The notes: generated by a model not told the origin, from the sequence alone. 59,448 nt of DNA from Terriglobales bacterium (GCA_050014035.1 JBEKED010000001.1:1-59448); one strand, 5' to 3'; shown: positions 1-24,563, numbered from the stretch's first letter. Numbers and translations are program-made.

Positions 1-680
1 ATCCCGTGGTCGACCACCGCCGTCAACGAAGCTTGCATTTGCTCACGCCGCATCCCCTCGTCAACTCGCGAATACCGATAAGCCAGCGCCAGCGCCTGAT
101 CCACATTCGCCGCGACCGAAACCGCATGGAACATCTTCACCACGCTCCCCACCTTATATCCAAAATCGATCCGGAAAGGATCTCCCAGCCCCGTGTACTT
201 CACCAGATCCAAATCTCGTTGCATCAACTCCAGCACTCCCGCATCGGTGAACGCGTCGCACATGGTGTTCACAATAGCAACCCGTCCGCTACGCTGCTGC
301 ACTCGCTCACCGCGTCCCATTGGAACTAGGTACATCGAAGTCAGCAAGTCCATCTCTTTCGCCGGATCCTCCGTCAGCACCGCCTTCGTAGGCCCCACAT
401 CGAGCATCGTCCCAAATCGTTCGTTCATAAGTTGCATCAGTTCTTCCCGCCGTCGCAAACTCCCCAGTCGTCCGCGGATCTCCCGCTCCACCATCTCGAA
501 CCACTCCAATTCCACATCCGGAGCCACGCACTGCAGCATTCGCCAGTCGCGAGTAAACCGCACCTCGGCAAATCCACCATCGCTTTCCAGCAACAACAGT
601 CCGACCGTAACGAAGTCATCCCGCAAGGCATGCGGCAAGAATCGCAACAGATAAAGTTCGAGTTGTCGCTTCTCAGCCAT
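1..680 (-). CDS. DUF3037-like protein (partial; C-terminus lies beyond the left edge)
   Basis: Absent from the ORF track because it runs off the window. A reverse-strand ATG at 680-678 opens a stop-free frame down to position 1: MAEKRQLELYLLRFLPHALRDDFVTVGLLLLESDGGFAEVRFTRDW... The N-terminal pattern (RF-x-P ... D/E-F-x-x-VG-hydrophobic run) matches my memory of DUF3037, a family that typically sits next to a HipA-like kinase. Confidence 0.65.
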   Translation of the reverse strand, partial: MAEKRQLELYLLRFLPHALRDDFVTVGLLLLESDGGFAEVRFTRDWRMLQCVAPDVELEWFEMVEREIRGRLGSLRRREELMQLMNERFGTMLDVGPTKAVLTEDPAKEMDLLTSMYLVPMGRGERVQQRSGRVAIVNTMCDAFTDAGVLELMQRDLDLVKYTGLGDPFRIDFGYKVGSVVKMFHAVSVAANVDQALALAYRYSRVDEGMRREQMQASLTAVVDHG

Positions 681-704
681 CCCGTGAACCCCTGTGCGCC
701 CTTT

Positions 705-750
705 GGTTCAATCTTCTCTGCAATCTCAGCGTTCTCTGCGTTCAGAAAGA
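705..750 (-). repeat. Triple-word intergenic element, copy E1 (word GCAGAG/GCTGAG)
   Basis: Plus strand reads GGTTCAATCTTCTCTGCAATCTCAGCGTTCTCTGCGTTCAGAAAG. It lies between the stop of the HipA-like gene (757) and the DUF3037 start (680). Same architecture as the copies at 1576, 3368 and 11809. Confidence 0.6.
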
Positions 751-756
751 CGCCCG

Positions 757-1563
757 CTAAGCCTCGCTCTCCCACTCCGGAAACGGCCGCCGCGGCGACC
801 CCCGAAACGCCAGAATCAGCTCCCGCACCAGCGTCTTCCGCGCGATCAGCCGTTCGACCAGCGCCTCCAACTCATCCCACGACCCGCCATACCACCCCGG
901 AGGTATCTCTCCCGCAACTCGCCAGATCGCATCTTCATCCAGCTTCTCAATTCGCGATAACCAGGGCTCGAACGACTCCCATCCACTAACCCGCGCATAT
1001 ACCTCATTCCGCGGATACACTCCACGCAATGGAAAATCCGGAAACGTCCACTCCCCTGCATTAAAGCAATACCCCTGATCGATGAACGCCGCCGAGTATT
1101 TCTTCTCCCGCATCTTCCGCCAGAATGCCGCCTGCCTTCCATCCGCATTGCATGTCCATTTATCCAGCGCCAGTATCCCCGCAAACGTACTGAGGTTCCG
1201 CACCCGGTCCAACATCTCCGGAGGCAAGTAATCGAGCACCTGCCCTTCCACCGGGCTCACCACATACCGTGACCCAAACTGCAACCCCGCCTCCACTTGA
1301 ACCTCATGGCTCCCCAGCACAATCGTCAATTCCGCCGTGTGTTCCACCAGCCACGGCTTTACCTCCACCACCTCCGCCGCCGGCACCGGCAGTCCCACCC
1401 GCTCCGCCAGTCGCGTAGCCAGAAACTCGTTAGCCAGTACCCGCTCATGCTGAGGATTATTCCGAAACTTCACCACGTAGTAATGCCCATCGTCGCACCG
1501 CATCAAATGTCCCTGCGCCCCACCCCGCATCCGCTTAACATGTTGGACCGCAGTAGTAGGCAT
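757..1563 (-). CDS. HipA-like serine/threonine kinase (kinase domain only)
   Basis: The ORF track gives 757..1632. Kinase-type motifs are present: YYVVKFRNNPQHERVLANEFLATRLAERVGLPVP, LALDKWTCNADGRQ, AFIDQGYCF. I prefer the start at Met24 (1563), because residues 2-23 (KSFTTGNTGDHRETF) are simply the translation of repeat element E2. Confidence 0.75.
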   Translation of the reverse strand: MPTTAVQHVKRMRGGAQGHLMRCDDGHYYVVKFRNNPQHERVLANEFLATRLAERVGLPVPAAEVVEVKPWLVEHTAELTIVLGSHEVQVEAGLQFGSRYVVSPVEGQVLDYLPPEMLDRVRNLSTFAGILALDKWTCNADGRQAAFWRKMREKKYSAAFIDQGYCFNAGEWTFPDFPLRGVYPRNEVYARVSGWESFEPWLSRIEKLDEDAIWRVAGEIPPGWYGGSWDELEALVERLIARKTLVRELILAFRGSPRRPFPEWESEA

Positions 1564-1575
1564 AAGTCCGGAAAA

Positions 1576-1611
1576 GGTTTCCCTGTGGTCCCCTGTGTTC
1601 CCTGTGGTGAA
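1576..1611 (-). repeat. Triple-word intergenic element, copy E2 (word CACAGGG)
   Basis: Plus strand reads GGTTTCCCTGTGGTCCCCTGTGTTCCCTGTGGTGAA. Clearly homologous to 3368..3405. Confidence 0.7.
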
Positions 1612-1716
1612 GCTCTTGCCTCTAGCCGACACCGGCAGAGGCGACGCCAGAAACCGCCACCATCAAGATACAAGCGCCAAAAAGTCCTGCCTGTGACAAC
1701 CGCACACAGAGAATGT

Positions 1717-3312
1717 TCACTTTCCCGCCAGTCCCACCGCCGCACGCTTCCATTTCCGCCCCGCTTCCTCCTTCCGCACCGCCCAGGCAATCGCGATAGC
1801 CATCACGCAATCGTCGTGCGCGCCCCCAGAAGCTCCCGTTCCCCCATCCCTATCCCGCACAAACGTCCGCAATTCCTGCAGCAGCCGCGAACTCCGGAAC
1901 AGCCCCGGCTCGTCGATCAACGCATCCCCCAGATTCTCGATCATTTTCGGACGACTCACCGCCGTAGTCGCCCACCCACCCTTCGCTTGCGCAAAAACCT
2001 TCGGATAGCCAAAATTCTCCAGATGCGCCAGCACCCCATTCCCGTGATTATTGCCCTCCACTGCCAGCAGCGCCGTATTGTATTCCTTCCCCAGTTTCAC
2101 CAGTTTCTGCGCAAACTCCCGCAAAGGCCAATGTCCGTGCAGCTCCGCACACTGCGTTCCCAGGTCCCGATCGATCACTTCCGCGCACGAATAATCCCCG
2201 TCGATCCCGCCTCCCGCCGGATCGGCTCCAATCACGTACTCCCGCCCCGGATGCGTAGGCAGCCAAATCAGCAGTCGATCGTTATCCCGCGTCTCGAACG
2301 GTTCGCCCGAAATCTCGAAAGCTCGATCCAGCGACGCTAGGTCAAACACGCATTCCCCCGATACCAGGAAACACGACACCGCATCCTCGGCATATTCCTG
2401 TACTGCCCGTCCTCGCAATGACGCCCATTGTTTCCGCCGCCATGCGATCTGTTCATCCTTCAGCCCGTGAAGGTTCTTCAGCTGTATCTCTTCTTCCGTC
2501 AGCGGCGCACAATTCCCGCAATCCTCAAGAACGTACGCCTCGTCATACCACCACGGGAAAAAGTGCCTCCTGTACCCCGTATCCTCCGCCCGCTGCCACT
2601 CCTCATAGAAAAGTCCGCCCGCTCCATTCGGAGTCGACTCCAGCACAATGTCTCCGTCCGGCACCACCGCCGCCCGCAACGAGGCCAGCGCCTCATCTCC
2701 TTCTCGCCCCCAGCGCGACACCTCCGAGCAATGCAGATTCTGGATCGTCCGCCCTCGTCCCGCATTCTCCACCGCCGAAGCCAGGCAGTATTCGCTGTCC
2801 AAACTCGGAAACACCAAATGCCGCGCGCTGCGGTACGAAGTTCGCAGGCAGCCTTTCCGTGCCTCCTCCGGCAAATTCTCCCAGAACCGCCGCACGATCC
2901 GAAAAATGTCCTCCGCCGCTTCCCTGTCCTGCGTTACCTGCATGCTCAAAGTGCCCGGCTGCGTGATCGTCTGCACAAAGAATCGAGCCGCAATGTACGT
3001 TGTGACTCCCACCTGTCGCGCCTTCAGCACCACATTTTTCTTAGCCTTCTCCCGCGAGCACACCCGCGAATATTCCAGTTGCGCCCGGTTTAAATGCAGC
3101 GAGATCCGGCCTTCCCTCTTCGTTCGGATCTTCAAAAATTCTTCAATGAAGCCATCCCGATTCGTTGGTTCTCGTGAATTCCCCGGCTCTATTCCCTCCC
3201 CAAGCGCTCGGTGAAACTCCCAAGGTTCATCTAAGTGCTTTCCGAACTCCGACAAATAATCTTTCGTCCAATCAAAATTCACCACCACCAGCCCATAAGA
3301 GCCCCGACCCAT
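1717..3312 (-). CDS. Phage terminase large subunit (apparently intact, orphan)
   Basis: 531-aa ORF. It has the terminase ATPase motif VLKARQVGVTTY plus LESTPNG. The C-terminal RNase-H-like nuclease acidic motifs are also present (VIGADPAGGGIDGDYS, LLAVEGNNHG, AHDDCVMAIAIAW). Confidence 0.85.
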   Translation of the reverse strand: MGRGSYGLVVVNFDWTKDYLSEFGKHLDEPWEFHRALGEGIEPGNSREPTNRDGFIEEFLKIRTKREGRISLHLNRAQLEYSRVCSREKAKKNVVLKARQVGVTTYIAARFFVQTITQPGTLSMQVTQDREAAEDIFRIVRRFWENLPEEARKGCLRTSYRSARHLVFPSLDSEYCLASAVENAGRGRTIQNLHCSEVSRWGREGDEALASLRAAVVPDGDIVLESTPNGAGGLFYEEWQRAEDTGYRRHFFPWWYDEAYVLEDCGNCAPLTEEEIQLKNLHGLKDEQIAWRRKQWASLRGRAVQEYAEDAVSCFLVSGECVFDLASLDRAFEISGEPFETRDNDRLLIWLPTHPGREYVIGADPAGGGIDGDYSCAEVIDRDLGTQCAELHGHWPLREFAQKLVKLGKEYNTALLAVEGNNHGNGVLAHLENFGYPKVFAQAKGGWATTAVSRPKMIENLGDALIDEPGLFRSSRLLQELRTFVRDRDGGTGASGGAHDDCVMAIAIAWAVRKEEAGRKWKRAAVGLAGK

Positions 3313-3367
3313 GTAGCGGCGGATTCATTCCGCCCCGCATATTCCCACGCATCGCACCGATCCAGCA

Positions 3368-3405
3368 GGTTTTCCCCTGTGCCCCTCTGTGTCCCCTGTG
3401 GTAAA
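3368..3405 (-). repeat. Triple-word intergenic element, copy E3 (word CACAGGGG)
   Basis: Plus strand reads GGTTTTCCCCTGTGCCCCTCTGTGTCCCCTGTGGTAAA. It lies between the stop at 3437 and the terminase start at 3312. Confidence 0.7.
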
Positions 3406-3436
3406 GCTTTTGATGTGTCCTGCACAGAAGCCGCCC

Positions 3437-5956
3437 TCAATGCGTCACGCTCAGACTCTCCGGCACGTACACGTAAGCTCCAATCTCCCACCCCAATCCA
3501 TACGAATCCTGATTAATTCCCAGCAGGTCGTATTGATACTCCGCTCCCAGATTCAACCCCGCATCCCGCACCGGAGAATTCACCGTAGGCCGAAAATCCG
3601 CCGCCACTCCATTCCCACCGCATACGTAAAAGCTGCCCGCCACATAGCCCGGCGGCACCGCATCGTTCGCCGCGCATGATTGCAGCAGGTTCACCATCTG
3701 CGTGTTCGACTCCAGAGTCGCGCCTCCTTGCACCAGCGCATCCATAAAGTTTTCAACCTCATCCGGCCGCAACTCATTCACGTGCCAGAAATATCCGATC
3801 GGTCTTCCCCAAAGCGCGTTCTTGAACACATCCTGACTAACCAGGTTTCGCATCTGCTGATAACTCAGATGTTGGTAGTTAGGCACTGCCCCCTGGCTCA
3901 AAATGTTGAACACGTCATATCCCTTAGCCAGCGTCGCATCCGCCCCACCCAGAACCCACGTCGAAGTAAGAGACCCCGTCCCGCGCACTCCCTTGAATCC
4001 CAGCCCGCTGGCGATGTTTTCCGTCAATGCGTCTCCGTAAGTACCGGGCATCACGTACACCAGATTGTTGAGATTCAATCCGGGAAGCCCCGAAAGGTAC
4101 TGGTTAAACCAGCTTAACGCCCAAGTCATCTCGTCGCTTTCAAGATGCGTTTCATCGAACAGCACGCATCCCGGAGTCGAAGGAACTGCGGTACAACTGG
4201 AAGCCACCGGCAAACTGCTCGGTAACGTCATCGGCCCCGCCACTCCCGGACTGGAAAATGTGTCGGCCAGCGAAAAGGCGTGTGCCCGCCCCTTCGCAAA
4301 TTGACTGTTGTATGCGGTAGCATCCACCGCATAGCAATTCGGCTCTGCCTGTAGAGTCGCCACGATATTCGCCAGCGTGTCGATCTGTCCCGTCCCCGCC
4401 GTTCCCCCCGGCGGCACCGGAGTCAGATCCCACGAGTGATAGCAAGTCGGATCGTAAGGCGAAGTCGTAAGCGTCAGGTTCCCCCCTCCGCCGCTGTGCG
4501 TGATGCTCAGCGTGTAACTTCCCGGCCCCACGTACGCCAGCAGAAAAGCGTCGCAAGGGATCGGCCCCGCCGCATCGTTGCATGACGTAGTCGAAGGCGG
4601 ATTCCAGTATTGATGCGAGACGGAATGCGTATTGATATCCCACCCCGCATTGATCCATCCCTGCACCTCCCCGATAATCGACTGCGATTCCAACCCGTTG
4701 GTGACCACCGCAATCGAAAGCGGCACCTTCTTCGCCGCCATCATCGGCAGCAACCCGTTCACATACGTATCGCTGTACTCAACCAGCCCGGGATCGTCAA
4801 AAGTCACCGTCGTATAAGCCGGCCACCGCTGCCACGCATGCACCCAAGGCGGCGTTTCAGCCGGTATATTATGTGTTCCTCCCGTCGGTCCAGGCGTGCC
4901 CGCAACATCCACAGCCAATGCCGTGGCCAGATAGTTGCCATACAAATGGCAGTAGTCGTAATTCACCGCTCCGTCCACCGCATCAAAAATCCCGTACGTC
5001 CGGTTGCCATACGCCCGGCAGTTCTTAATTTCGAAGTAGCACCCGCCGCCACTGCATCCAGACCCAGGGTTTTTGAAGCTGTAGCCCATGTAATTCATGT
5101 TCGCGTCGGTGTTGTAAAGATGGATGTCGACGGGTGTCCCGCTAGGTTGCACATAGAAACCCAACGGCACCGTGCTGTTCTCGACTTCACTGTTAGACGC
5201 GATATTTGCCAGCCAAAGATGATCACTTAGCCCCTGCACCTGCACTCCATAGGAGTCGAACCAGTCAATCTGCAGATGCTGAATCTCCAGCCACGAGACG
5301 GAATTCAGATTCAATACTGTCTCCCCGCTCAGCACAATCGGCGCAACCAGGCGCGAATACCCCGCATTCGTCGCCGGATTCCCCTCGGCGCTGTACACAT
5401 ACAAAATGTAATTCGTCGAGTCGTACCAGAAATCCCGGTCGTGGCTCAGAGCGCTCTCGCTCCCTTGCGCCGTACCCCACACCGTCCCAAACCGTACATA
5501 CTGCAACTGCGTCGGCGGCTGCGTCAGGCAATAAAACCCCCGCACCCCGCACTGCATCACCGTCGTCAGCCCGCTAGTGGCCGAATAAAGCGTAGCCGCC
5601 CACACATTCGTATTAGGAACCTGCGTCCACCACTGTTGCCCCACCGGCAAATACCCCGTCAAGTGCGGCGGCTGGCCAGTCCCATAACTGTCGATCTTGA
5701 TCAGCGCGCCCCCCGTAGCCGGGTTAGTCCCACTCGATGGCGGAGTCAAAGTCTCGTTCCAGGTACAGTCCCGCAACAGGTTGATCGTGTCACCGGGCTG
5801 ATAGCTGCTGATCCCAACCTCCAGCAAAGTGCGCCAAGCCAGTTGCGGACTCGTCCCCGGATTCCCATTCGACCCATAATTACAATCGACGTAGTAATTC
5901 GAGGCACACGCCAGCGGCGCTCCCAGACATAGAAGCATCAACAATTTTGTCATCAT
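3437..5956 (-). CDS. Secreted beta-helix protein fused to a polysaccharide deacetylase (CE4/NodB-like) domain
   Basis: 839-aa ORF with a signal peptide (MMTKLLMLLCLGAPLACA/SN). The N-terminal half looks like a parallel beta-helix. The C-terminal half carries NodB-type motifs (VTFDDPG, NTHSVSHQ). Confidence 0.8.
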   Translation of the reverse strand: MMTKLLMLLCLGAPLACASNYYVDCNYGSNGNPGTSPQLAWRTLLEVGISSYQPGDTINLLRDCTWNETLTPPSSGTNPATGGALIKIDSYGTGQPPHLTGYLPVGQQWWTQVPNTNVWAATLYSATSGLTTVMQCGVRGFYCLTQPPTQLQYVRFGTVWGTAQGSESALSHDRDFWYDSTNYILYVYSAEGNPATNAGYSRLVAPIVLSGETVLNLNSVSWLEIQHLQIDWFDSYGVQVQGLSDHLWLANIASNSEVENSTVPLGFYVQPSGTPVDIHLYNTDANMNYMGYSFKNPGSGCSGGGCYFEIKNCRAYGNRTYGIFDAVDGAVNYDYCHLYGNYLATALAVDVAGTPGPTGGTHNIPAETPPWVHAWQRWPAYTTVTFDDPGLVEYSDTYVNGLLPMMAAKKVPLSIAVVTNGLESQSIIGEVQGWINAGWDINTHSVSHQYWNPPSTTSCNDAAGPIPCDAFLLAYVGPGSYTLSITHSGGGGNLTLTTSPYDPTCYHSWDLTPVPPGGTAGTGQIDTLANIVATLQAEPNCYAVDATAYNSQFAKGRAHAFSLADTFSSPGVAGPMTLPSSLPVASSCTAVPSTPGCVLFDETHLESDEMTWALSWFNQYLSGLPGLNLNNLVYVMPGTYGDALTENIASGLGFKGVRGTGSLTSTWVLGGADATLAKGYDVFNILSQGAVPNYQHLSYQQMRNLVSQDVFKNALWGRPIGYFWHVNELRPDEVENFMDALVQGGATLESNTQMVNLLQSCAANDAVPPGYVAGSFYVCGGNGVAADFRPTVNSPVRDAGLNLGAEYQYDLLGINQDSYGLGWEIGAYVYVPESLSVTH

Positions 5957-5981
5957 GATTTTTGTGAGTTGGTAACTTATG

Positions 5982-8900
5982 CTAGTTCTGCATCTGATAG
6001 GTCACGGTTGCGACCATTCCAGCGGCGTTCGTGCTGCAACCCGATGCAGCAGTCGTGACCTTGATTCGCAACAGATGTCCCGCAGTAACATTCGTGCTCC
6101 CCGTAACCTGGGAGTAGAAATTGTTGCCCGACGTAAGTGGAATCGAATAACCGCCAACCTCCGCCCCCGCCGTTCCATCCCAAACCTGAACCACCGGATA
6201 AGTCGCGCACCCCACCGGAGCAGTGTTCGCCGCAAAGTCGAAGCCGGTAATCGTCAACCCGGCAGGAATCGTCCAATTGCAGTTTTGCGAGGCCGATGTC
6301 GACCCCGCCACCGGACAAGTCCAATTGAAATAAGTCTCGCTCTTTACATAGGCTGTTGTCGCCAGTTTCGTCGAGTTATCTCCCACGCTTTGTGTGGTTG
6401 CCGTCGTCCCATTCGGCAATGTCGGCGTCCCGCTCAAATTCGCCGCCGTCCCCGTAGTGTTCGCCGCGTTGTTTGGAATGTCGCTCGAGAGCAGAGTCGG
6501 TAACTGCGCATGGGGTAATGTTCCGGTCGTGACCTGACTGGCGGATACCACGATGTTCCCGGTCAACGCGTTCCCGTTCACTGTAGTTGAGGTCGGAACG
6601 TACCCAGGCAATACCGTGCCGGAGGGGAGAGTAGGGGTGCCGGAAAGATTCGCCGCCGTCCCCGTAGTGTTCGCCGCGTTGTTCGGAATCTCCGACGCCG
6701 CCAGCAACCCCCCGCTCAGCTGAGGAATATCGCTGCCCGTACTTCCCACCGTGTACGACGTCCCCCACGCGCTCCCCGTCGAATTCGCAATCCCCGCCCC
6801 CGGCCACACCATCCCGCCGCCCGACGGCATACACGACGCCCCACTACTCAGCTGGCAATGAAACGCATTATCCGATCCCACGCCCATTGAAAAATTCATC
6901 CCGCTAGGAACCGTAACCGAAGTTCCCGTCCATTCCACCCCCGACCACTGCGTCGGACCCGACCCCGTCTGATTAATATTCCCCGCCACGTTAAGATTTC
7001 CGCTCAGCGTAACCGTACTCGAAAATGTCTTCGCCCCCGTTATCGTCTCTGCCCCCGCCAGGTGAACGACAGTCGAGTCCACCGCAGCCCCCGTAACCTG
7101 CCCCACGGAATAATCCCCAGTAGCCGCCGTCACCGCGCCCGTCCGTCCAAATACCGAACTCACCGCCCCGCCTCCGCCGCCCCCGCTCGGAGCTCCAAGA
7201 CTCACCCGCACATTGCCGCCTTCAATTCTCCCAATCACCTGCACGCCCGTCGGCCGCGTGGTTGATCCCGTATCGTGACACTCTCCCGCTTGCGTCGTAC
7301 TGGCAACCACGTAATCTCCCGCCACCGGACTGCCCGCATCGAAATTACACACGGCTAATCCCGCCCACGTGATCACCGCTTTGTTCGACGTTCCCGCCCC
7401 GCTGCTGACAATGCCGACCACTCCATCCGTACTCGACGTAGACGCCGTCTGCACCCCGCTCGCCCCGCTGTTATAAACCGCCAAAGAATTCAGTGTCGTG
7501 CCGTTTGTCCCGTCGTTCTGATACTCGAAATCCTGCCGGCCCGTGCTGTATATATTGAACGACGTCTTCGCGAACACGCTCCGCATCGCCTGCCCGCTGT
7601 CGGTCCCGATATCGTAGCTATTGTCCGTGCTCGGCTTCAATGCGCCCGTCGCCGCGAACCCCCACTTCAAACTCGACCCGATATACATCCCCAACCCCAG
7701 CGCGTTGCCGCTGGTCGCATCCTCGCTCCGCAACACCTGGTAACCGCTCGCCGTGTCGTACCCCATCGACATCCGCGTCCACTGCGTGTTGTTCGTGTAG
7801 GTCGAATACACCCGGAAGTTCTCCGCGTTACTTCCATTCCTCTCCTCTAAGTAATAGGCAGGGTTACCGCCCCCCGGATCCGAATTGAACAGGGTAGTAA
7901 GGCCCAGCTGCACCGCTTGCCCATTATTGTCAATGAAGAATGGCGCGTGTTTCGAAATATCAAACCAGAACACGCCCCAGTTATTAATCCCACTCGGCTG
8001 CGTCGTTTCAGGCAGTTCAATCAAATCCGGCGTCGTGCAATTCGCATTTCCATTCGCCGCAATCCCCGTCGCAAACGACCCGCTGCACTGCGTCGGAGTC
8101 GCCGCCAACGCCAGCGCCGTTCCCGCCTGTCCACTGATATTCGAACTAGTAAGTGCAACCTGCTCCGTTGTTCCTCCAATGTTGACCACTGGCAACCCCG
8201 CGGCCGTATCAAGTCCAATTCCGCCCACCGCTGGAACGTAGCCGCTCCCCGCCGGCAATACCAGGTTCCCGCTCACCGCCACATTAGTAGTAAATGTCTT
8301 GGCCCCGGTGATCGTCTCGGCATTCGCCAGGTGCACCACCGTTGAGTCAACCGCAGCTCCGGTAACTTGTCCCACCGAGTAATCCCCCGTCGCCGCCACC
8401 ACTGCGCCCGTTCGCCCGAACACCGAACTAACACCCCCACCGCCGCCGCCCCCCGATCCGCACGCACTTCCAGTTGACGTAATTAACCCGGACACAACAT
8501 TCAGGCAACCATTCGTTAGCCCAGGAAGCGTTACGCTCTGGTCGAACTGCGCCGCAACATTGAATTCCTTCAGCGTTCCCGTGAGCCGCTCCAGCCAGTT
8601 CGAGTGAATCCCGTCGCCAGTCTGCGCGATGTAATTCGTGATCGATATCGGCGCCCCAAATGCCAGTTGCCCCGCACTCGCATACACGTTCCCCGGCGTG
8701 TCCGTCCCAATCCACGTGTCATTCGCACTTGCCGGCGGACGAAATCCCCACGTCGATTGCGTCAGCGTCGGCTGCGAATCCAGCAGCGTGATAATGTGGT
8801 GCGCCGAAATAAGTGACCCTGGCGTGCCCGTGAAATTCAACCGCCCTTTCGTCAATGTCATCCCATTGCCGACATTTGCCCCATCGCTCAACAACGTCGC

Positions 8901-11732
8901 TGTCTGATTCGGCACCGCGTTATTCGAAGATGTCACACTCGCCAGACAGGTCGTATAACCTCCCGGCGACGGTACCCCGTAGTTCGTGCATAGACTGGCG
9001 ATCTGCAATGGATTTCCGAACAGCCCCACCGCTACCGCACCCGCCTCGTCCCGATCCACGATCACTGGAGTGCTCACCGACACGATCGAACCCGGCCAGA
9101 AGTTAAGTGTCCCGGTGTAATGGCCCGGTTTAATGGTGTACGCCGAGGTGGACGACGATCCGTTATCTGTATAACTGCAAACAAATCCGCCCGAGCAGGC
9201 CGCCGCCTGGGTCAGTCCTTTTGCCACATATCCGCATATCCCACCCGCTCCTCCAGGGCATCCTCCGCTATACGGAAACACTGAACCCACACTGGCTGGA
9301 GTCGCTATCCGCAGTACGTCATAAGTGATCCCATCCGCCCCATTTGCTACCCTGGGCCAGCGCACCGGAATCGACTCTGTTCCCGTCGATAGCCAACTCA
9401 TGATCTGCATCGGAGAGGTTTGCACATTAGTCGTCGTGTCATTAGCCACGATGAAATATGTGTACGGAATCGACCCGCTTCCACCCGCCGCAAACCCTCC
9501 CGTCGTGCCCCCATTCCCGGTAATCTCAAAACTCCCACTCGAGGCTCCCGCAATCAAACCCGCGATCCCGAGCCCAGGAAACGGAGATGTCGCTGGAGAT
9601 TGCGGGTTTAGTGCGTTGCTGTCCTCGGAATAGATGTTCTTGAGATATGCTCCCTGATAGTTCCCCGTGGTGTTCGATGCGTATACTTCCCACGGTCCCG
9701 TCGCTTGCAAAACTGTGTTCTCGATATAAAGCCCATTCGAGTTATAGTCGGTCACTCCATTCGAATAATTTGCCGTGATCGTCGAATCCCGCAGCGTAAT
9801 CACCGGCGCAATCGGCAAACTTTGGTTCCCTGCCGAGAACACGAACGATCCCGTCCAGTTCGCGTTAGCGTTCAGCGAAATGCCCTGATTGTTGAAGTGA
9901 TCGATGGTCGCATTCTCATCGTCCCACAGGTCGAAAAAGTTGTTGAAGTGGCCGTTCTCTGAATCTTTGTCATAGGAAATGTCCACCAGATGCGTGTCCA
10001 TCGCGTCGTCTAAAACCGCCACATACGCCAGCGCTACCACTCCAGGGCTTGTCTGCGCCGCAATATTAGCTGCCGTGTGCGCATACTGAAATGTGGTCGA
10101 GTTCGGTACCGCCGTGATCGTCGCATCCCCCCAGTAGCTGCTGTTGTCGGTAAATAAAATCGTCACCATATCCCCGACTCGAAAGCCATGCGGGCTCGCC
10201 GTCGTGATGGTCACCACCTGCGATGTCAACTGCGTTTGCGTGATCGCCACTCCCGCAAAAGATGCGTTGCTCGAAACATTGACCGGCGTCCGAAAGCTCA
10301 GCCCCGCAACCGTGTTGTCCGTGTAGTCGTTCGAGTACCTTAGATCGCCGATCTGCAAGCACGCCCCGCGCCCAAGGCAGTTCAGTGACGTCCCGTAGCC
10401 GCTCAGAATTGATTGGTTGCTATGCAGGTAGATGGTTCCATAGATGTTGTAGGTGTTAATCGTGCTGTTCGGCCCGTTCGCTGGAATCGTCACATTGCAC
10501 TGACTATTCTTGTACTGCGTCGCACTAACTCCGCAACCCGCATTCAGCGTCTCTTGTATACCGGAGGAGGCTGAACCAATGGTATATCCCGCCGCATAAG
10601 AGTAGAACGGAGTGAACGTAATCGTCCCTGACCCCGCTCCTGACATGCATCCCCCCGCCGCCGCGATCACACTCACCGCTTCGCTATTGCCTCCTCCAGT
10701 CAGAAGAACTTGATACCCGGCTCCACTCGTCGTATCAATGCCCGTCGGACACGGCGTCAGCGTGACCGTTGCCTGGGTTCCACCAGTTAACGTACTGGAC
10801 ATCGTTTGCGTCCAATTCAACGAAGTCGTCGCATACGTGATCCCCGCCGGCGCGCCCCCGCCACAGGAACCCCAGGTCGAGTTTCCATTCAAACACGTTG
10901 CTGAACTGGCCACTCCCGCACCCAGTTCCCCGGGAGGAACCGTCCCATTCACCAGCCCCGCTTTCACCGCCAGCCCGTTGTCCACATAGTTCCGGTCTGC
11001 TGCCTGGTTCGGCGACGTCGGATCCGCCGGCAACGTCAGCGGTCCAGTCATCGTCCCGCCCGCCAGGGGAAGGTACGCTCCCGCGCCAACATTCTGTACT
11101 GCCGTATCCACATAGTTCTTATTAGCCGCGTCAGTCGGCTGCACCGGCGCTGGCAGTAAAGGGGACGCTGTAAACTGCTTCGTGCCCGTTATCGTTTCCG
11201 TTCCCGCCAGGTGTACCACCGTGGCATCGACCGCCAGCGGCGCGATCGCCGCATTTACATACTCCTGCGTAGCTGCCAGATTCCCCAGCCCCGTATCCGG
11301 AGTCGTCAGCACCTCCGCAATCGTCACCGGCGATGTTGTCGGAACCGACCAATACTCAGTTCGCACCGTTCCATCATCCAGTTGGAAAACCGCAACATAC
11401 AACGTTCCCGCCGGAGTCGCTCCCACGTTCGGCACCAGCTGTGCCGTAAACGCCCCGAGCGGCCCGATCGTCACCGCCAGGTTGCCCGCCGCCACCGCAT
11501 CGCCCGCCGCCGACTCGAACGTCGGCCACGAAATCAGCACCGTACCCGACGCTGTCGTTCCGTCCGCCCGGTACACCGTATCGCTGATGGTCGTAAGCGC
11601 TGGTCCCTGGGCTTGCAATGTAGTCGACAACGATAACAATGCCAACGCCAACGCCGACAGCAGCACCCGTAAACTCACCATCCCCGTTGCCATCGGGAAG
11701 CACTCGTTATTCACCCCATACCATCTGCGCAT
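5982..11732 (-). CDS. Giant secreted tail-fibre-like repeat protein (~1916 aa)
   Basis: The ORF track gives 5982..11774. I prefer the ATG at 11732, which lies 8 nt after the SD GAGGAGAG. The product begins MRRWYGV...MVSLRVLLSALALALLSLSTTLQA/QG, a signal peptide. Phage tail-fibre collar motifs are present (PLAGGTMTGPLTLPADPTSPNQAADRNYVDN), and a VVHLAG(T/A)ETITG(T/A)K(Q/T)F module occurs three times. The protein is rich in Gly/Thr/Ser/Asn. Confidence 0.85.
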   Translation of the reverse strand: MRRWYGVNNECFPMATGMVSLRVLLSALALALLSLSTTLQAQGPALTTISDTVYRADGTTASGTVLISWPTFESAAGDAVAAGNLAVTIGPLGAFTAQLVPNVGATPAGTLYVAVFQLDDGTVRTEYWSVPTTSPVTIAEVLTTPDTGLGNLAATQEYVNAAIAPLAVDATVVHLAGTETITGTKQFTASPLLPAPVQPTDAANKNYVDTAVQNVGAGAYLPLAGGTMTGPLTLPADPTSPNQAADRNYVDNGLAVKAGLVNGTVPPGELGAGVASSATCLNGNSTWGSCGGGAPAGITYATTSLNWTQTMSSTLTGGTQATVTLTPCPTGIDTTSGAGYQVLLTGGGNSEAVSVIAAAGGCMSGAGSGTITFTPFYSYAAGYTIGSASSGIQETLNAGCGVSATQYKNSQCNVTIPANGPNSTINTYNIYGTIYLHSNQSILSGYGTSLNCLGRGACLQIGDLRYSNDYTDNTVAGLSFRTPVNVSSNASFAGVAITQTQLTSQVVTITTASPHGFRVGDMVTILFTDNSSYWGDATITAVPNSTTFQYAHTAANIAAQTSPGVVALAYVAVLDDAMDTHLVDISYDKDSENGHFNNFFDLWDDENATIDHFNNQGISLNANANWTGSFVFSAGNQSLPIAPVITLRDSTITANYSNGVTDYNSNGLYIENTVLQATGPWEVYASNTTGNYQGAYLKNIYSEDSNALNPQSPATSPFPGLGIAGLIAGASSGSFEITGNGGTTGGFAAGGSGSIPYTYFIVANDTTTNVQTSPMQIMSWLSTGTESIPVRWPRVANGADGITYDVLRIATPASVGSVFPYSGGCPGGAGGICGYVAKGLTQAAACSGGFVCSYTDNGSSSTSAYTIKPGHYTGTLNFWPGSIVSVSTPVIVDRDEAGAVAVGLFGNPLQIASLCTNYGVPSPGGYTTCLASVTSSNNAVPNQTATLLSDGANVGNGMTLTKGRLNFTGTPGSLISAHHIITLLDSQPTLTQSTWGFRPPASANDTWIGTDTPGNVYASAGQLAFGAPISITNYIAQTGDGIHSNWLERLTGTLKEFNVAAQFDQSVTLPGLTNGCLNVVSGLITSTGSACGSGGGGGGGVSSVFGRTGAVVAATGDYSVGQVTGAAVDSTVVHLANAETITGAKTFTTNVAVSGNLVLPAGSGYVPAVGGIGLDTAAGLPVVNIGGTTEQVALTSSNISGQAGTALALAATPTQCSGSFATGIAANGNANCTTPDLIELPETTQPSGINNWGVFWFDISKHAPFFIDNNGQAVQLGLTTLFNSDPGGGNPAYYLEERNGSNAENFRVYSTYTNNTQWTRMSMGYDTASGYQVLRSEDATSGNALGLGMYIGSSLKWGFAATGALKPSTDNSYDIGTDSGQAMRSVFAKTSFNIYSTGRQDFEYQNDGTNGTTLNSLAVYNSGASGVQTASTSSTDGVVGIVSSGAGTSNKAVITWAGLAVCNFDAGSPVAGDYVVASTTQAGECHDTGSTTRPTGVQVIGRIEGGNVRVSLGAPSGGGGGGAVSSVFGRTGAVTAATGDYSVGQVTGAAVDSTVVHLAGAETITGAKTFSSTVTLSGNLNVAGNINQTGSGPTQWSGVEWTGTSVTVPSGMNFSMGVGSDNAFHCQLSSGASCMPSGGGMVWPGAGIANSTGSAWGTSYTVGSTGSDIPQLSGGLLAASEIPNNAANTTGTAANLSGTPTLPSGTVLPGYVPTSTTVNGNALTGNIVVSASQVTTGTLPHAQLPTLLSSDIPNNAANTTGTAANLSGTPTLPNGTTATTQSVGDNSTKLATTAYVKSETYFNWTCPVAGSTSASQNCNWTIPAGLTITGFDFAANTAPVGCATYPVVQVWDGTAGAEVGGYSIPLTSGNNFYSQVTGSTNVTAGHLLRIKVTTAASGCSTNAAGMVATVTYQMQN

Positions 11733-11771
11733 GTCTTTTTCTCTCCTCGTAAGCGCGCGCGAAGCTTGGCC

Positions 11772-11800
11772 CAATAAGAAAGCCGCTCAATTTGAGCGGC
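11772..11800 (-). terminator. Rho-independent terminator after the phosphatase gene
   Basis: Minus strand reads GCCGCTC-aaatt-GAGCGGC followed by TTTCTTATTGG. It lies between the phosphatase stop (11895) and the tail-fibre-like start. Confidence 0.6.
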
Positions 11801-11808
11801 GCCCGAAA

Positions 11809-11860
11809 GGTTTTTCCCGTCTTTCTCTGTATTTCTCTGCGTCCTCTGCGTTAAGGTTTT
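11809..11860 (-). repeat. Triple-word intergenic element, copy E4 (word GCAGAG/ACAGAG)
   Basis: Plus strand reads GGTTTTTCCCGTCTTTCTCTGTATTTCTCTGCGTCCTCTGCGTTAAGGTTTT. Confidence 0.6.
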
Positions 11861-11894
11861 TGACTTTCGCCGCAACCGCACGAAAACCCGATGA

Positions 11895-12359
11895 TCACTC
11901 TGAAGCCCGCGGCTCGCTCTCCATTCGCGACGACACATATCGCCGCACGCTCTCCACGTACACATCCGCGAAATCCACCACCGGCCTGCATCTCTCGATC
12001 AGCACCATCGCCGCTTCCATCTCCCAATCCATTGCACAGAGCACTGCCAGCGTCATCATCGGCGCCCGGTGCACCCCCGCCGCGCAATGAATGTAAAGTC
12101 GCGCTGACGGTTCGTCCAGCGCTTCCAACGCAAAATCCACCCCGCGTTGCAGCAATTCCGACGGTTTTGGCAGAAAATCGTCGTCCGTAGGATTCCACAG
12201 CACCCGGATGCCATGCGGTGCCGCCAGCGGCCCGTCATCAAACTCGATCTGCATGTCGAGCACGTGCGTCACTCCCGCCTGCGCCAGTTCTTCCATGTTC
12301 CGCGCGTTCCAGATCCCACCCCCCAGCGCGATTCGCTCCGTGACCCAGGATATGTCCAT
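11895..12359 (-). CDS. Dual-specificity / tyrosine protein phosphatase
   Basis: 154-aa ORF with the CX5R active-site loop (IHCAAGVHRAP) in a DSP-sized protein. Confidence 0.85.
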   Translation of the reverse strand: MDISWVTERIALGGGIWNARNMEELAQAGVTHVLDMQIEFDDGPLAAPHGIRVLWNPTDDDFLPKPSELLQRGVDFALEALDEPSARLYIHCAAGVHRAPMMTLAVLCAMDWEMEAAMVLIERCRPVVDFADVYVESVRRYVSSRMESEPRASE

Positions 12360-12432
12360 GCTGCGTTCCGCCGCACCCTCCGGCCCAATCCTCAGTGGCT
12401 CCCTAGCACTCTTCTGATTCTACGTCACTCCC

Positions 12433-12465
12433 CAAAATAGAAAAGGGCGCGATTTGCGTCGCGCC
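12433..12465 (-). terminator. Rho-independent terminator after the sigma-like gene
   Basis: Minus strand reads GGGCGCGA-cgcaaa-TCGCGCCC followed by TTTTCTATTTT, 40 nt downstream of the stop at 12507. Confidence 0.7.
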
Positions 12466-12506
12466 CTTCGGAGTTCTAAATATTCTTGACTCTTATATCC
12501 AGAATA

Positions 12507-13088
12507 TCAGATCACAGGGGGTAAACGGACATCTTTTTCATGTTTATTTTTGCCATCCTTTGAACCACTTACGTCGAAATCATAGCTTTCACCCCCTTGA
12601 CAACTTTCAACCCCACAAGTCGCCGACCCCATTTCTTCCAACAAACCGCCCGCGAGTAGTATCCGCCCGAGTTCGTCGAGCGCCTCCTGTAAGCGGCGGC
12701 GCACGCTTCTGGGCGTACAACCGAGCAGTCGTGCGACCTCATGCGCATCGTATTCTTCGAGAATATTCATCGCTAGCAACCTTTTGTCGATTGCGCTCAA
12801 CTTATCGATCGCCTTCTCCATATCGGTCACAAAGATCACAACGTCTTCGAAGTTCCTCATCGTGTATGACGTCACCCGTGTTCGGAAGAACTCCCGACCC
12901 AGCAGCGACGGCAGTCTCCCTACCTCGACCGAAGCTCGGGCATACCGCCGCAGCAGCGCTGTTGTGCGTGCGCGGTAAGGCCACATTTCCATCTCCGTTT
13001 CGGCAAACAACACCGATGGTGGCGGTCCTGCCTGTCCCATCAGACTCCGTGAGTCTGCGTTCATGGTTTGCACGCTTGTCATGCCCAC
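12507..13088 (-). CDS. Sigma-70 region-4-like HTH protein (no recognisable region 2)
   Basis: 193-aa ORF. The central segment LSAIDKRLLAMNILEEYDAHEVARLLGCTPRSVRRRLQEALDELGRIL matches the sigma-70 region 4 HTH pattern. It overlaps the upstream zinc-ribbon ORF by 10 nt. Confidence 0.6.
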   Translation of the reverse strand: MGMTSVQTMNADSRSLMGQAGPPPSVLFAETEMEMWPYRARTTALLRRYARASVEVGRLPSLLGREFFRTRVTSYTMRNFEDVVIFVTDMEKAIDKLSAIDKRLLAMNILEEYDAHEVARLLGCTPRSVRRRLQEALDELGRILLAGGLLEEMGSATCGVESCQGGESYDFDVSGSKDGKNKHEKDVRLPPVI

Positions 13089-14135: not shown

Positions 14136-14798
14136 CTAGCCACGTTCAAACACGTGCTTTTCTTCTAACTGCCGAACCGCTGCAGCCATGTCGCCTTCAT
14201 AGCGCTCTCTTTGCTCAATTAGCGCCGGGAGCGCGGTGGCATGGCGCCGCGCCATGGTGAAGAGCCCTTGCTTTGCGACTTCAGCCGCGATCTCAGCAAG
14301 GTGATCGACGGTGGTATCGAGGTAGAGGCTTTCAATCGGGTCGCCCAGCCACACATCTCCGCCCACCAGACGCGTTTGCCAGTACACCTTGCGCTCGATC
14401 ATGCGCGAAATTTCTTCGTCGCTAGCCTGGCCGAAACTCCACTTCTTGAGCTTGAAGTTGTAGTGTCTGCTGGAAAGAGGCAGCGGCACCAGTTTGCCCG
14501 ATTTCACGAACTCCGTCTGCTTCTGATCGACTTCCTTGCGCAGAGCATTGATGACCAGGCCTTCTGTGTCTTTCGGTTCGAGGGAAGGCAGCGCTTCCCG
14601 TAAAGTGGCGGAAAGATTCACGGCCACCAGCGCGCGCAGGTCATCGGAGTTTTCCAGCGTGACCACAGTATGCAGAACCTCAAAGTCCGCGCCCGACGTG
14701 GCGTGGTGAAAAGGCCATTCGAGTTTGAAACTGAGTGGCAGTCCAGTGCGGGTGACATAGATGGTTTTCGGCGTGGTACTCTGGTTCGGGGTGCTCAT
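14136..14798 (-). CDS. Hypothetical protein (220 aa, no recognised family)
   Basis: Long ORF with normal (not Arg/Pro-skewed) composition, and no better ORF on either strand. I recognise no motifs. Confidence 0.6.
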   Translation of the reverse strand: MSTPNQSTTPKTIYVTRTGLPLSFKLEWPFHHATSGADFEVLHTVVTLENSDDLRALVAVNLSATLREALPSLEPKDTEGLVINALRKEVDQKQTEFVKSGKLVPLPLSSRHYNFKLKKWSFGQASDEEISRMIERKVYWQTRLVGGDVWLGDPIESLYLDTTVDHLAEIAAEVAKQGLFTMARRHATALPALIEQRERYEGDMAAAVRQLEEKHVFERG

Positions 14799-14852: not shown

Positions 14853-16118
14853 CTACCGCGACGTCGTCAGACGGACCAATTGCCACAAATTCCAAATCGC
14901 GGAGGCGCCCAACAATCCGCACAGACCTGCCGTCACGGGCACCCCCTGTTGCGTCTCCAACAAATCGGCGAACACTCCGCTGACGAAAACGAAAAGGAAC
15001 ACGAGCAGTGTCAGATGAAACCCTTGTCCCGGAAAATCGGGAGTGCCCATAGCCGAAATGAGTAACAGTACCGCCACCAAGAGCGGCACCGTGTTTCCGA
15101 AATAACGTGTGCGCTTCCAACCGAGGTATGCGATCAGTGCAACCGGCAAGGCAATCATCAGCGGAGGACTGCTGACGGAGATTGTTTGCATGATGCTCCG
15201 GTAAGAGGCCGGCATTTCAAACGCGGCAGGTTCGAAGTCAAACCACCGCGCGTGCCGTATCCCTTGCCAGAACAACGCAGCTTCGAAACAGTAGGCGGCA
15301 AACAGCAACACTACGGCGACTGCGACGGCAACCATCCAAACCCCGAGCGCCGCGAGCGGACGGACGGGCGCGACCCACAATATTAGCGGCAAAATCAATA
15401 GCGCCAGCACTCCAAGAGAAAACTGGTTGCCCGTTGCCAGCGCAAACGACAGCCCCAGAAGCAGAATGCGCCGCCAATTCCAGAGCACCACTTCGCGAGG
15501 AGCATAGAGTGTGTGCGCGACAGCAATCGCAGCGAAAACGGTTCCGAACGCCCCCCACACCGCACCCATCTCTCCCGCGCTCTGGATGCCAGTTGCGTTC
15601 ACGATCATAGCCGGCGAAAAGCAGTAGAGTACAAGCGCGATATATCCACCAGCGTTGCCGGAAAGCCGGCGCGCAACGTACCAGAGCGAAGCTCCCAGCA
15701 TGACGCCGAAAAACAGGTATGGGATCGCGGTCAGGAATGGTTGGAGCGATTCCGGCAGCCACGCCCCGTGGCGCACCAGAAGCGGCGCCGCAGCAATGAG
15801 GTAGTAGAGGGGCGAGCGGTCCTGATCGTAACCGTCGCGCACGCGAAGGTGTCCGGAGCGGCCCGCGGAAGGCAATCCGGTTGCGGCCTCCGAACGCAAC
15901 GACTCGGGAGTTCCCGCGATGACGCCTCTCTTCCACTGCTCGAGGCCTTGATAGATGCGCAGAGACTGGTCGGAGTCCGGCAGCGCAGCCTGTAACGTTT
16001 GCACGCGTATCAGCCATACGCATTGCAGCAGGTACACCAGAAGCAGCGCGGCCGCGATCCACTGCGGAGCGCGGAACGCATCGGAATGGAAAAATCGGGG
16101 CACCGATTCGCGCAACAA
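14853..16118 (-). CDS. Polytopic membrane protein, GT-C (ArnT/PMT_2)-like glycosyltransferase
   Basis: 421-aa ORF with roughly 10 or more hydrophobic spans. The first-loop motif DQDRSPLYYL is typical of GT-C enzymes. The function call is tentative. Confidence 0.6.
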   Translation of the reverse strand: MLRESVPRFFHSDAFRAPQWIAAALLLVYLLQCVWLIRVQTLQAALPDSDQSLRIYQGLEQWKRGVIAGTPESLRSEAATGLPSAGRSGHLRVRDGYDQDRSPLYYLIAAAPLLVRHGAWLPESLQPFLTAIPYLFFGVMLGASLWYVARRLSGNAGGYIALVLYCFSPAMIVNATGIQSAGEMGAVWGAFGTVFAAIAVAHTLYAPREVVLWNWRRILLLGLSFALATGNQFSLGVLALLILPLILWVAPVRPLAALGVWMVAVAVAVVLLFAAYCFEAALFWQGIRHARWFDFEPAAFEMPASYRSIMQTISVSSPPLMIALPVALIAYLGWKRTRYFGNTVPLLVAVLLLISAMGTPDFPGQGFHLTLLVFLFVFVSGVFADLLETQQGVPVTAGLCGLLGASAIWNLWQLVRLTTSR

Positions 16119-24181: not shown

Positions 24182-24204
24182 ACACGTCTCCTTTATCACG
24201 CGAA

Positions 24205-24440: not shown

Positions 24441-24563
24441 CTACGATCATGCGCGAACCTAATTTTGAGAAAGAACAAAACAGCAGCCCAGCCAATCTAC
24501 CGGGCGCCTCGATACAAAGTCAAACGCCAGTGCAAAGCAACGCAATGCAAGCGCTTCCAGTCG

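Follow-up and report, generated by a model that had tools for sequence, protein, structure and literature searches.

A Phage-Derived Locus in Terriglobia That May Encode a Domesticated, Short-Tailed DNA-Packaging Particle

We analyzed a 59,448-nucleotide stretch of DNA from a Terriglobales bacterium, here called the window. Near its left end, the minus strand carries three consecutive genes (Table 1). They encode the large terminase subunit TerL, an 839-aa beta-helix protein with a deacetylase-like domain, and a giant protein of about 1916 aa. Judged from the same genes in relatives, this trio is the upstream end of a phage-derived locus of about 22 to 25 kb that is fixed and maintained in the Terriglobia (Acidobacteriota). 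The locus is probably an anciently domesticated, podovirus-like one that encodes a DNA-packaging particle, and it is a candidate for an element like a gene transfer agent (GTA). Its fixed site, its class-wide gene order, its co-divergence with a flanking host gene, and the lack of integrase, repressor, and replication genes argue for domestication and against an ordinary or decaying prophage.

A sequence-only reading of the stretch had described an intact orphan terminase chained to two secreted proteins. It had proposed either a decayed prophage or a domesticated module with exported fiber-like and glycan-modifying proteins. The three open reading frames (ORFs) lie exactly where it had placed them (Table 1). 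Domestication and export both fit the data. The decayed prophage with an orphan terminase is refuted by the portal, capsid, and adaptor genes in relatives and by purifying selection.

Terminase and head genes

When TerL was used as a protein query, more than 5700 relatives came up, and the best 120 were examined. Apart from the near-identical P0001, these are 63 to 77% identical to the query and full length or nearly so. The organism-named entries among them are Terriglobales metagenome-assembled genomes (MAGs), several on megabase contigs. In a scan of species representatives (one genome for each GTDB species), 483 genomes had a TerL relative, and 80 of these were fetched. The synteny table was made by tblastn over 85 fetched TerL loci. 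A metagenome scan, centered on the gene for a protein of ~781 aa (g781), contributed 80 further loci. L001 is a locus on a 5.46-Mb chromosome. L006 is the closest relative (TerL 94% identical, ~88% nucleotide identity over 13 kb).

TerL matched the terminase large subunit family phrog_2 (E = 4e-28, residues 66 to 520). Its Pfam matches fell just short: Terminase_6C scored 22.4 bits with a cutoff of 22.6, and GpA_ATPase was also subthreshold (E = 8e-4). The C-terminal half aligned to a solved nuclease domain (PDB 5tge, E = 6.7e-5). TerL contains an N-terminal packaging ATPase with Walker A and B motifs and a C-terminal RNaseH-like nuclease with acidic catalytic residues. K97-A-R-Q-x-G-x-T-T, E197, D364, E419, and H499-D-D (D500, D501) are invariant in 19 orthologues of 63 to 74% identity. 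The ATPase and nuclease motifs appear intact, as the sequence-only reading had it. The Walker A motif is deviant, with an upstream lysine, and presumably resembles that of lambda gpA.

No portal, capsid, or integrase gene had been seen near the trio, and by Pfam scans this is literally true within the window. The left edge of the window falls within a DUF3037 gene, 1.7 kb from TerL. In relatives, TerL has portal and capsid genes beside it, in the part that falls outside the window. The orphan appearance is thus an edge artifact, because only 1.7 kb of sequence lies left of TerL and the head genes lie beyond. A repurposed terminase is not needed, since TerL sits beside its usual partners.

The L001 locus begins with genes for a sigma factor, a dual-specificity protein (DSP) phosphatase, a 1897-aa protein, an 803-aa beta-helix protein, and TerL. 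TerL is followed by HipA_2, a 23S-rRNA-IVP protein, DUF3037, and a 425-aa Phage_portal protein. After the portal come genes for proteins of 183, 143, 323, 209, 134, 172, 149, 169, and 781 aa. Gene order is conserved in about 74 of the 85 fetched loci, and the remainder are mostly truncated contigs. The portal begins 0.1 to 2.5 kb past DUF3037 and 0.1 to 5.5 kb downstream of the end of TerL in relatives, and the capsid-type gene lies about 3 kb farther on. In L006, the portal start is ~1.8 kb beyond the point that matches window base 1. The window's own TerL sequence was recovered on contigs of 2.8 to 4.4 kb, and the near-identical P0001 was found on contigs of at most 16.8 kb. None of these contigs extends more than ~0.65 kb past the DUF3037 gene.

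The portal protein matched PF04860 (E = 1.7e-41) and also phrog_2662/phrog_12, and by these matches its identity is unambiguous. A phrog_442 match identifies the 209-aa protein as a head-tail adaptor, and the 143-aa protein, a coiled coil, occupies the position of a scaffold.

The 323-aa protein had no direct match in Pfam, PHROG, NCBIfam, PDB, or phage genomes (50,697 genomes). Narrow-profile PDB searches with the 323-aa, 183-aa, and ~781-aa proteins gave no match, and NCBIfam gave nothing useful. Among 1.84 billion representative proteins, an exhaustive search with HMMER detected 318 relatives of the 323-aa protein. A diverse profile was built from 31 full-length or near-full-length relatives and one family member (29 to 54% identity). 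PF17236 (SU10_MCP) was matched by 11 of these 32 remote homologues (best E = 3.9e-8); one other family, Major_capside, was matched by one of the 32, and Phage_capsid likewise by one. The diverse profile matched Gp6.1 of PDB 9vel (E = 0.0028, 240 residues). By transitive homology, the 323-aa protein is thus an SU10-type major capsid protein. An AlphaFold model from a 15-sequence alignment was unusable (pLDDT 37).

The capsid-type protein is exactly 323 aa long in 119 of the 120 best clusters, which are 86 to 96% identical to the first sequence of the query. It is still 72 to 82% identical in lineages where TerL is down at 44 to 52% (IMG/VR loci L173 to L178). Its mean column identity across the class is 85%. 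In one comparison it was by far the most conserved gene of the element, a constraint unusually strong for a capsid protein. Its gene lies at 16812-17783 in L001 and at 18151-19122 in L006.

The nearest phage TerL proteins among the 50,697 phage genomes are those of Roseobacter phage CRP-7 and Stx2-converting phages, and they are 28 to 29% identical over 86 to 87% of the length. The locus shares with CRP-7 and the SU10-capsid podophages the order TerL, portal, scaffold, capsid, adaptor, and large tail protein. The PF17236 matches of the remote capsid homologues are a further likeness. The ~781-aa protein is a candidate tail or nozzle protein. Hhalign comparisons of the capsid-type and ~781-aa proteins with the capsid and tail proteins of CRP-7 were negative. 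A podovirus-like, short-tailed particle is the most economical reading, given that the nearest phage terminases come from short-tailed phages, that the CRP-7 gene order is alike, and that no tape measure or tail tube was recognized.

Fixed site, distribution, and selection

The 80 fetched TerL-bearing genomes are labeled Acidobacteriaceae, Terriglobales, Terriglobia, or Acidobacteriota, with the exception of two Candidatus Tumulicola contigs. Thirty-four loci extend far enough to show what follows the cluster, and in every one it is a minus-strand gene for a 2-oxoacid dehydrogenase E2 protein (E2). The optional small genes d99 and d376 sometimes lie between the cluster and E2. The E2 flank was also found in the deep-clade loci L054, L066, and L069. 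In L066, the host genes selA and DUF488 directly precede TerL.

Pfam and PHROG scans of ORFs from sigma to E2 in L001, L066, and L086, together with precomputed Pfam matches, found no integrase, repressor, or replication gene. Several small ORFs between sigma and E2 have no family match. The d99 protein, encoded after g781, has a C-terminal membrane segment.

Another group of genes lies beyond E2 and is conserved in most loci. In L086 (15406-20508), it contains a variable Cys-rich lipoprotein of ~1000 aa, an endolysin-like Peptidase_M15_3 protein, the 201-aa lipoprotein d201, and a papain-family protease. This group may belong to the same system, because homologues of the lipoprotein and of d376 lie directly upstream of TerL in deeper clades. 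A spanin role for d201 was rejected, as the protein has no C-terminal membrane segment.

IMG/VR contigs with TerL identity above 44% carry the same element, in the same order where this can be judged. Four of them have TerL at 70% identity or more. True phages in IMG/VR begin at 31 to 36% TerL identity and have nothing else in common with the locus. One contig with the element, L178 (IMGVR_UViG_3300047494_000274, 55.8 kb; TerL 46%), is rearranged. Its upstream part contains the scaffold-like gene, the capsid gene, most genes through g169, and a giant-like gene. Its downstream part contains TerL, HipA, DUF3037, the portal, and g781.

Omega was estimated by the Nei-Gojobori method for window genes against six relatives. 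It ranged from 0.03 to 0.29 over all five genes tested, and all of them are under purifying selection. The values were 0.15 to 0.29 for TerL, 0.06 to 0.15 for the 839-aa protein, 0.09 to 0.15 for the giant protein, 0.03 to 0.11 for the HipA_2 kinase, and 0.08 to 0.15 for the DSP phosphatase. The terminase is therefore not under the relaxed selection that the sequence-only reading had considered, and its catalytic residues are invariant. The pairwise synonymous divergence (dS) of TerL is below that of the neighboring genes, which hinted at an overlapping element. This idea was dropped, as diversity at 4-fold sites is ordinary (0.50, 80 orthologues).

Co-divergence with E2 was assessed from pairwise protein distances in the clade from the g781-centered metagenome scan. 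The distances of the portal, the capsid protein, g149/169, and g781 correlate with those of E2 (Pearson r = 0.52 to 0.74). The mean protein distance is 0.118 for the portal and 0.098 for the capsid protein, compared with 0.117 to 0.118 for E2. The portal and capsid proteins diverge no faster than E2.

By analogy, a fixed site, selection, and co-divergence together are the signature of domesticated elements such as RcGTA-like clusters. The locus has several traits of a viriform. The scanned ORFs form a structural cluster without integration, lysogeny, or replication genes. The cluster is found clade-wide at a conserved site, with vertical inheritance suggested by the E2-distance correlation, and its structural genes are under purifying selection. 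It lacks what a temperate prophage would have: the window contains no tRNA, the scanned ORFs include no integrase, and the flank is the same wherever it was examined.

Two predicted exported proteins

The 839-aa protein had been read as a beta-helix protein with a CE4 deacetylase domain. Its Pfam matches are subthreshold (Beta_helix, E = 4e-4; Polysacc_deac_1, E = 3.5e-4), but its CE4 motifs are invariant and the beta-helix is supported by a structure match. A 24-homologue profile matched the beta-helix protein PDB 7v6m in its N-terminal cap (E = 1.5e-8), and PF13229 is precomputed for many homologues. The motifs TFDD (D387, D388) and HSxSH (H444, H448), found in all 24 homologues, would provide the Asp-His-His metal triad and catalytic Asp of a CE4 enzyme. 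Chitin deacetylase PDB 5z34 matched the profile with an E value of only 0.38. An AlphaFold model from the 24-sequence alignment was unusable (pLDDT 39). The PHROG scan gave no match for this protein, and its similarity to phage proteins is confined to residues 19 to 101. It has no particle-binding domain, and the signal peptide occupies the N terminus.

The giant protein had been read as a protein of ~1900 aa with fiber-collar motifs, and its family and structure matches agree. It contains three copies of a ~25-aa collar motif (VVHLAGxETITGxKTF). It matched Pfam BppL_N (E = 2e-12) and phrog_10512, and in the PDB it matched the TP901-1 BPP (4hem/3u6x, E = 1e-4). Its similarity to phage proteins covers residues 153 to 253 and 496 to 564 only (~5% of its length). 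To judge from orthologue N termini, translation probably starts at the ATG at 11732, which gives 1916 aa. The C-terminal ~200 aa (past about residue 1720) could not be aligned even with the 88%-identical L006 orthologue. The giant protein thus has the collar modules and the variable C-terminal tip of a fiber or receptor-binding protein. A polymorphic toxin was considered for this variable C terminus and rejected. This tip is rich in beta structure and resembles a lectin, and the gene is not followed by a small immunity gene.

Signal peptides were called from their pattern and from conservation across orthologues. They are conserved in 78 orthologues of the 839-aa protein and 53 of the giant protein, in agreement with the sequence-only reading. 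In the leader of the 839-aa protein, a basic n-region precedes a hydrophobic core and an AxA-type site. The mature N terminus is conserved, for example as ...GAPLACA/SNYYVDCNYGSNGN or ...A.A/TTYYVD. The leader of the giant protein is longer and ends LQA/QGPALTTISDTVYRADG. The leader sequences of both proteins diverge while the signal-peptide pattern stays.

At least 9 Cys residues are invariant in the 839-aa protein. The giant protein has 22 Cys in 11 closely spaced pairs, each kept in 17 to 21 of up to 21 orthologues. This conserved pattern is typical of disulfide-bonded extracytoplasmic proteins, and both proteins are predicted to be Sec exported and disulfide stabilized. Virion proteins are normally assembled in the cytoplasm. 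The AxA-type site and Cys pairs of the giant protein do not fit such assembly, in a heuristic reading. Because of their export signals and cysteines, neither large protein is likely to be assembled there. The phage likeness that had been claimed for both covers only ~5 to 10% of their length.

Both proteins vary where receptor-binding proteins do, the giant protein in its tip and the beta-helix/CE4 protein in its allelic classes. The 839-aa protein has two such classes, of ~835 and ~798 aa, which are 82 to 90% and 65 to 69% identical to the window copy, respectively. Allelic class is independent of TerL relatedness. Loci L016 and L017 come from the same MAG (MFD09222.bin.1.125). Over the first 5.7 kb, a stretch that includes most of the giant gene, their identity is 98%, and it drops to 78 to 82% in the 3' end of that gene and in the gene for the beta-helix/CE4 protein. 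The possibility of two copies in one genome was considered and rejected. The loci are 88 to 98% identical with the same flanks and are most likely two strains in one bin. Most of the difference between these strains probably lies in the receptor-binding-like module.

The genes immediately upstream of TerL in deep clades encode beta-helix proteins with signal peptides (1315 to 2042 aa), giant-like proteins, and a d201-type lipoprotein. In the clade of the window, homologues of d201 and d376 are found downstream of g781 or on the far side of E2. The accessory set looks like one ancestral late region that was permuted around the head genes. Such permutation argues for a functional link and not for chance neighborhood.

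Kinase pair and upstream regulators

A HipA_2-type kinase gene lies between TerL and the portal in 81 of the 85 loci, and a DUF3037 gene does so in 77. TerL directly abuts the portal only in L054, L066, and L076. The kinase is 93 to 98% identical where TerL is 69 to 94% identical, and it is the best conserved gene of the locus among those compared with TerL and in the omega set. HipA_2 and DUF3037, adjacent in at least 77 loci, weakly match the PADLOC system PDC-M66, which is itself a candidate defense system.

The DUF3037-portal spacer is a hotspot for insertions that differ between strains. It can contain the IVP gene, a ClpP-like SDH protease fragment (L006 13480-15160), or unique DNA (L004 6576-7224). 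The IVP gene is absent from the window and present in L167, whose TerL is that of the window.

The DSP phosphatase gene lies upstream of the giant gene in 46 loci. The sigma gene lies upstream of the phosphatase gene in 33 of the 85 loci, and many loci are cut before that point. It opens a conserved block of sigma, phosphatase, giant protein, beta-helix protein, and TerL. In two clades, the sigma and phosphatase genes stand together ahead of the giant gene.

Weighing the explanations

Several points weigh against a domesticated particle locus. The support comes from sequence, and for the source strain itself the portal is predicted from relatives. Seven cluster proteins have no family match, and a small terminase, tail tube, tape measure, holin, and clear lysis cassette were not identified in the cluster scans. 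With their signal peptides and disulfide-type Cys, the two large proteins do not look like ordinary virion parts, and only short modules of them resemble phage proteins. Host genes lie between them and TerL in some lineages (L066). The co-divergence with E2 is moderate and was tested in one clade, and there has been some exchange between lineages.

The strongest alternative concerns the two exported proteins. They could be ordinary host envelope or exopolysaccharide genes, an adhesin-like fiber and a PelA/PgaB-style deacetylase, that are mere neighbors of the head cluster. Their conserved signal peptides and disulfide-type Cys would be expected of such genes, as would phage likeness over only ~5 to 10% of each protein and the lack of a PHROG match for the 839-aa protein. 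Their L066 homologues are parted from TerL by selA, DUF488, and a membrane protein gene. However, both genes are co-oriented with TerL and adjacent to it in most loci, across clades with TerL at 57 to 60% identity. The same accessory set (d201 lipoprotein, d376, and a d989-like domain) recurs either upstream of TerL or downstream of g781. The receptor-binding-type variability and the fiber-collar motifs also speak against mere neighbors. We consider this alternative unlikely.

Functional temperate phages of one family, all integrating at one conserved site, would account for an intact TerL, portal, capsid-type protein, and adaptor. Virus-prediction pipelines do catch the locus, as the four IMG/VR contigs show, and the published viral group Cluster 153 (see below) includes locus L108. 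Yet the scanned ORFs hold no integrase, repressor, or replication gene, and the window holds no tRNA. The cluster consists of ~13 to 14 kb of structural genes only, with housekeeping genes on both sides. Relatives of TerL occur in 483 species-representative genomes with divergence that tracks E2, and no close free phage was found in the 50,697 phage genomes or in IMG/VR. Such a phage family is improbable. The sequence-only reading had held that portal and capsid genes beyond the left edge would mark an ordinary prophage. The genes are there in relatives, but the prophage verdict fails on the fixed site, the breadth, and the co-divergence.

A decaying remnant in which TerL survived by chance, or was repurposed without a capsid, fits the missing portal and capsid genes inside the window, but the window edge cuts the locus, these genes follow in relatives, omega is well below 1 in every tested gene, and the capsid-type protein keeps its length of 323 aa, so this explanation has very little probability left. 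A capsid-forming phage-inducible chromosomal island (PICI) or satellite was rejected on the lack of an integrase and on the fixed site.

Proposed working

In the domesticated particle locus that we favor, the host would make short-tailed, DNA-filled particles, with TerL cutting DNA and pumping it through the portal. We give this step about an even chance. The particles would serve the host, most plausibly as a GTA, or else as another kind of DNA-containing particle. By definition, GTA particles pack random pieces of host DNA, too short to move their own locus, and pass them to recipients.

The two exported proteins could form a glycan-recognition and glycan-deacetylating arm that works outside the cytoplasm on exopolysaccharide. 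There is a little less than an even chance that they act on the exopolysaccharide or envelope of producer or recipient cells and are not virion parts. It is more doubtful that they meet the particles after lysis or at the cell surface. Surface preparation for particle release or uptake would be an alternative role for both.

The ECF (extracytoplasmic function)-like sigma factor, the DSP phosphatase, and the HipA-type kinase are probably a host-side control layer, to judge from their position. All three are candidates for confining production to a subpopulation. The most specific version of this scheme is a Terriglobia GTA that was independently domesticated and makes a short-tailed, SU10-capsid particle. 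Its adsorption proteins would be exported by Sec and folded with disulfides outside the cytoplasm, and only after release would they join the particle or act on the exopolysaccharide. The kinase, phosphatase, and sigma factor would gate it. This version as a whole is unlikely.

Related systems and earlier reports

The closest parallel in kind is RcGTA of the Alphaproteobacteria. Both loci have a head(-tail) structural cluster of ~14 kb, with terminase and portal first and no integrase or replication genes. Both have a fixed chromosomal position, clade-wide vertical inheritance, and purifying selection. RcGTA has accessory genes (fibers, lysis) that lie partly elsewhere and host regulators in control, as the Terriglobia locus probably does. 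The two share no sequence relationship, however. The Terriglobia locus has an SU10-type capsid and a TerL most similar to the terminases of podophages. Neither a tape measure nor a tail tube was recognized in it, its particle is probably short tailed, and a small terminase was not found. HipA_2 and DUF3037 are wedged between TerL and the portal, and the fiber- and spike-like proteins have signal peptides.

The Terriglobia locus also differs from CRP-7 and the Stx2-converting phages. TerL is only 28 to 29% identical to theirs, and the locus is without replication, lysogeny, and early genes.

The giant protein resembles TP901-1 BppL and phage fiber collars in its triplicate collar motif. In contrast to BppL, this motif makes up a few percent of 1916 aa, and the remainder carries 11 Cys pairs and a Sec signal peptide and has no further match to phages. 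The 839-aa protein resembles PelA/PgaB-type exopolysaccharide enzymes in its signal peptide and its CE4 motifs (TFDD, HSxxH). Unlike them, it has a right-handed beta-helix as partner domain, and it has no significant sequence match to them. Its gene is linked to a phage-like head cluster and has two exchangeable alleles.

The locus has probably been seen before and read as a new viral group. Eichorst et al. (2018; PMC5900883) treated "Cluster 153" as likely active prophages that form such a group. Its hosts are Terriglobus saanensis, T. roseus, Terriglobus sp. TAA 43, strain KBS 89, Terracidiphilus gabretensis, and Ca. Koribacter versatilis, and it also holds the soil metagenome contig JGI26339J46600_10000010 (PMC5900883). 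That contig is our locus L108 and carries this element. The other Cluster 153 regions are probably the same locus. The fixed site, class-wide distribution, selection, and exported proteins were not reported for Cluster 153 (PMC5900883). A 2025 study of the Sphagnum virome (PMC12142844) maps a shared phage-like contig to an Acidobacteriaceae genome and raises GTAs as a general possibility only.

We found no description of such an element in the literature on GTAs in Acidobacteria/Acidobacteriota. Within the searchable literature, the locus has not been recognized as a host-maintained particle locus. Its kind, the domesticated phage structural cluster, is known. Its unusual features are the exported adsorption-type proteins, the embedded kinase pair, and the SU10-type capsid lineage.

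Acidobacteriota are among the most abundant soil bacteria, and little is known of their gene exchange. If the GTA reading is true, the locus would be a new, independently evolved GTA family in a dominant soil lineage. It would show concretely how genes could flow in this lineage and how surface-glycan recognition genes could turn over there. Surveys of soil viruses based on counts of terminase, portal, or capsid genes will score this host locus as a prophage, and IMG/VR and earlier genome surveys appear to have scored it as viral. The exported, disulfide-rich relatives of fibers and spikes raise the question of how phage-derived particles cooperate with the cell envelope. Cultured Terriglobus, Terracidiphilus, and Koribacter strains probably carry the locus, which makes experiments feasible.

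Other features of the window

The features of the window are listed in Table 1. To the right of the trio lie the DSP phosphatase gene, the gene for the sigma-70 region-4 protein, two ORFs, gyrB, queA, and a gene for a TonB-dependent receptor. No tRNA was found in the window.

TABLE 1 Coordinates of features in the window
Feature	Coordinates	Strand	Remarks
DUF3037 protein, 3' end cut by window edge	3..707	-	Pfam DUF3037 E 3e-11; PADLOC PDC-M66B E 1.6e-3
HipA_2-type Ser/Thr kinase	757..1563	-	Pfam HipA_2 E 9e-13; PADLOC PDC-M66A E 1.1e-9
CAGRGR-unit repeat copy 3, between TerL and HipA-like gene	1580..1604	-	
TerL, large terminase subunit, ATPase and RNaseH-like nuclease, first head-module gene	1717..3312	-	531 aa
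CAGRGR-unit repeat copy 2, in 124-nt gap between 839-aa gene and TerL	3374..3398	-	
839-aa protein with predicted signal peptide, right-handed beta-helix, and CE4-like (NodB-type) deacetylase domain	3437..5956	-	
Giant protein, ~1916 aa, predicted long signal peptide	5982..11732	-	ORF open to 11774 (1930 aa)
CAGRGR-unit repeat copy 1, between phosphatase and giant genes	11824..11848	-	
Dual-specificity protein phosphatase (DSPc)	11895..12359	-	Pfam DSPc E 3.8e-8, above cutoff
Sigma-70 family protein, region 4 only (ECF-like)	12507..13088	-	Sigma70_r4_2 E 2.8e-8; NCBIfam sigma70-ECF E 7e-8, below cutoff

A purine-rich repeat with CAGRGR units lies on the coding strand and spans ~50 to 60 nt with its flanks. 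Its 3 copies are the only ones in the 59-kb window, where 0.09 would be expected by chance. A REP-like element had been described after each gene. This holds for the phosphatase, 839-aa, and TerL genes, and there is none after the giant gene, which is followed by a 25-nt gap. The repeat is absent from L006 and occurs sporadically at other intergenic positions in L007, L010, and L086. For this reason the copies are best read as small mobile intergenic repeats and not as conserved signals. A terminator-like hairpin lies 3' of the phosphatase gene, at 11782-11800.

The GC skew is -0.15 to -0.34 across the whole cluster (window 1-13000), where the coding strand is G rich, and about zero beyond ~14 kb. 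The two ORFs between the sigma gene and gyrB encode proteins of 220 aa (14136-14798, minus strand) and 421 aa (14853-16118, minus strand), neither with a Pfam match. A cobalamin riboswitch (RF00174, 62.6 bits; 24208-24467, minus strand) lies directly upstream of the TonB-dependent receptor gene (21965-24238, minus strand). This gene presumably encodes a B12-regulated uptake receptor.

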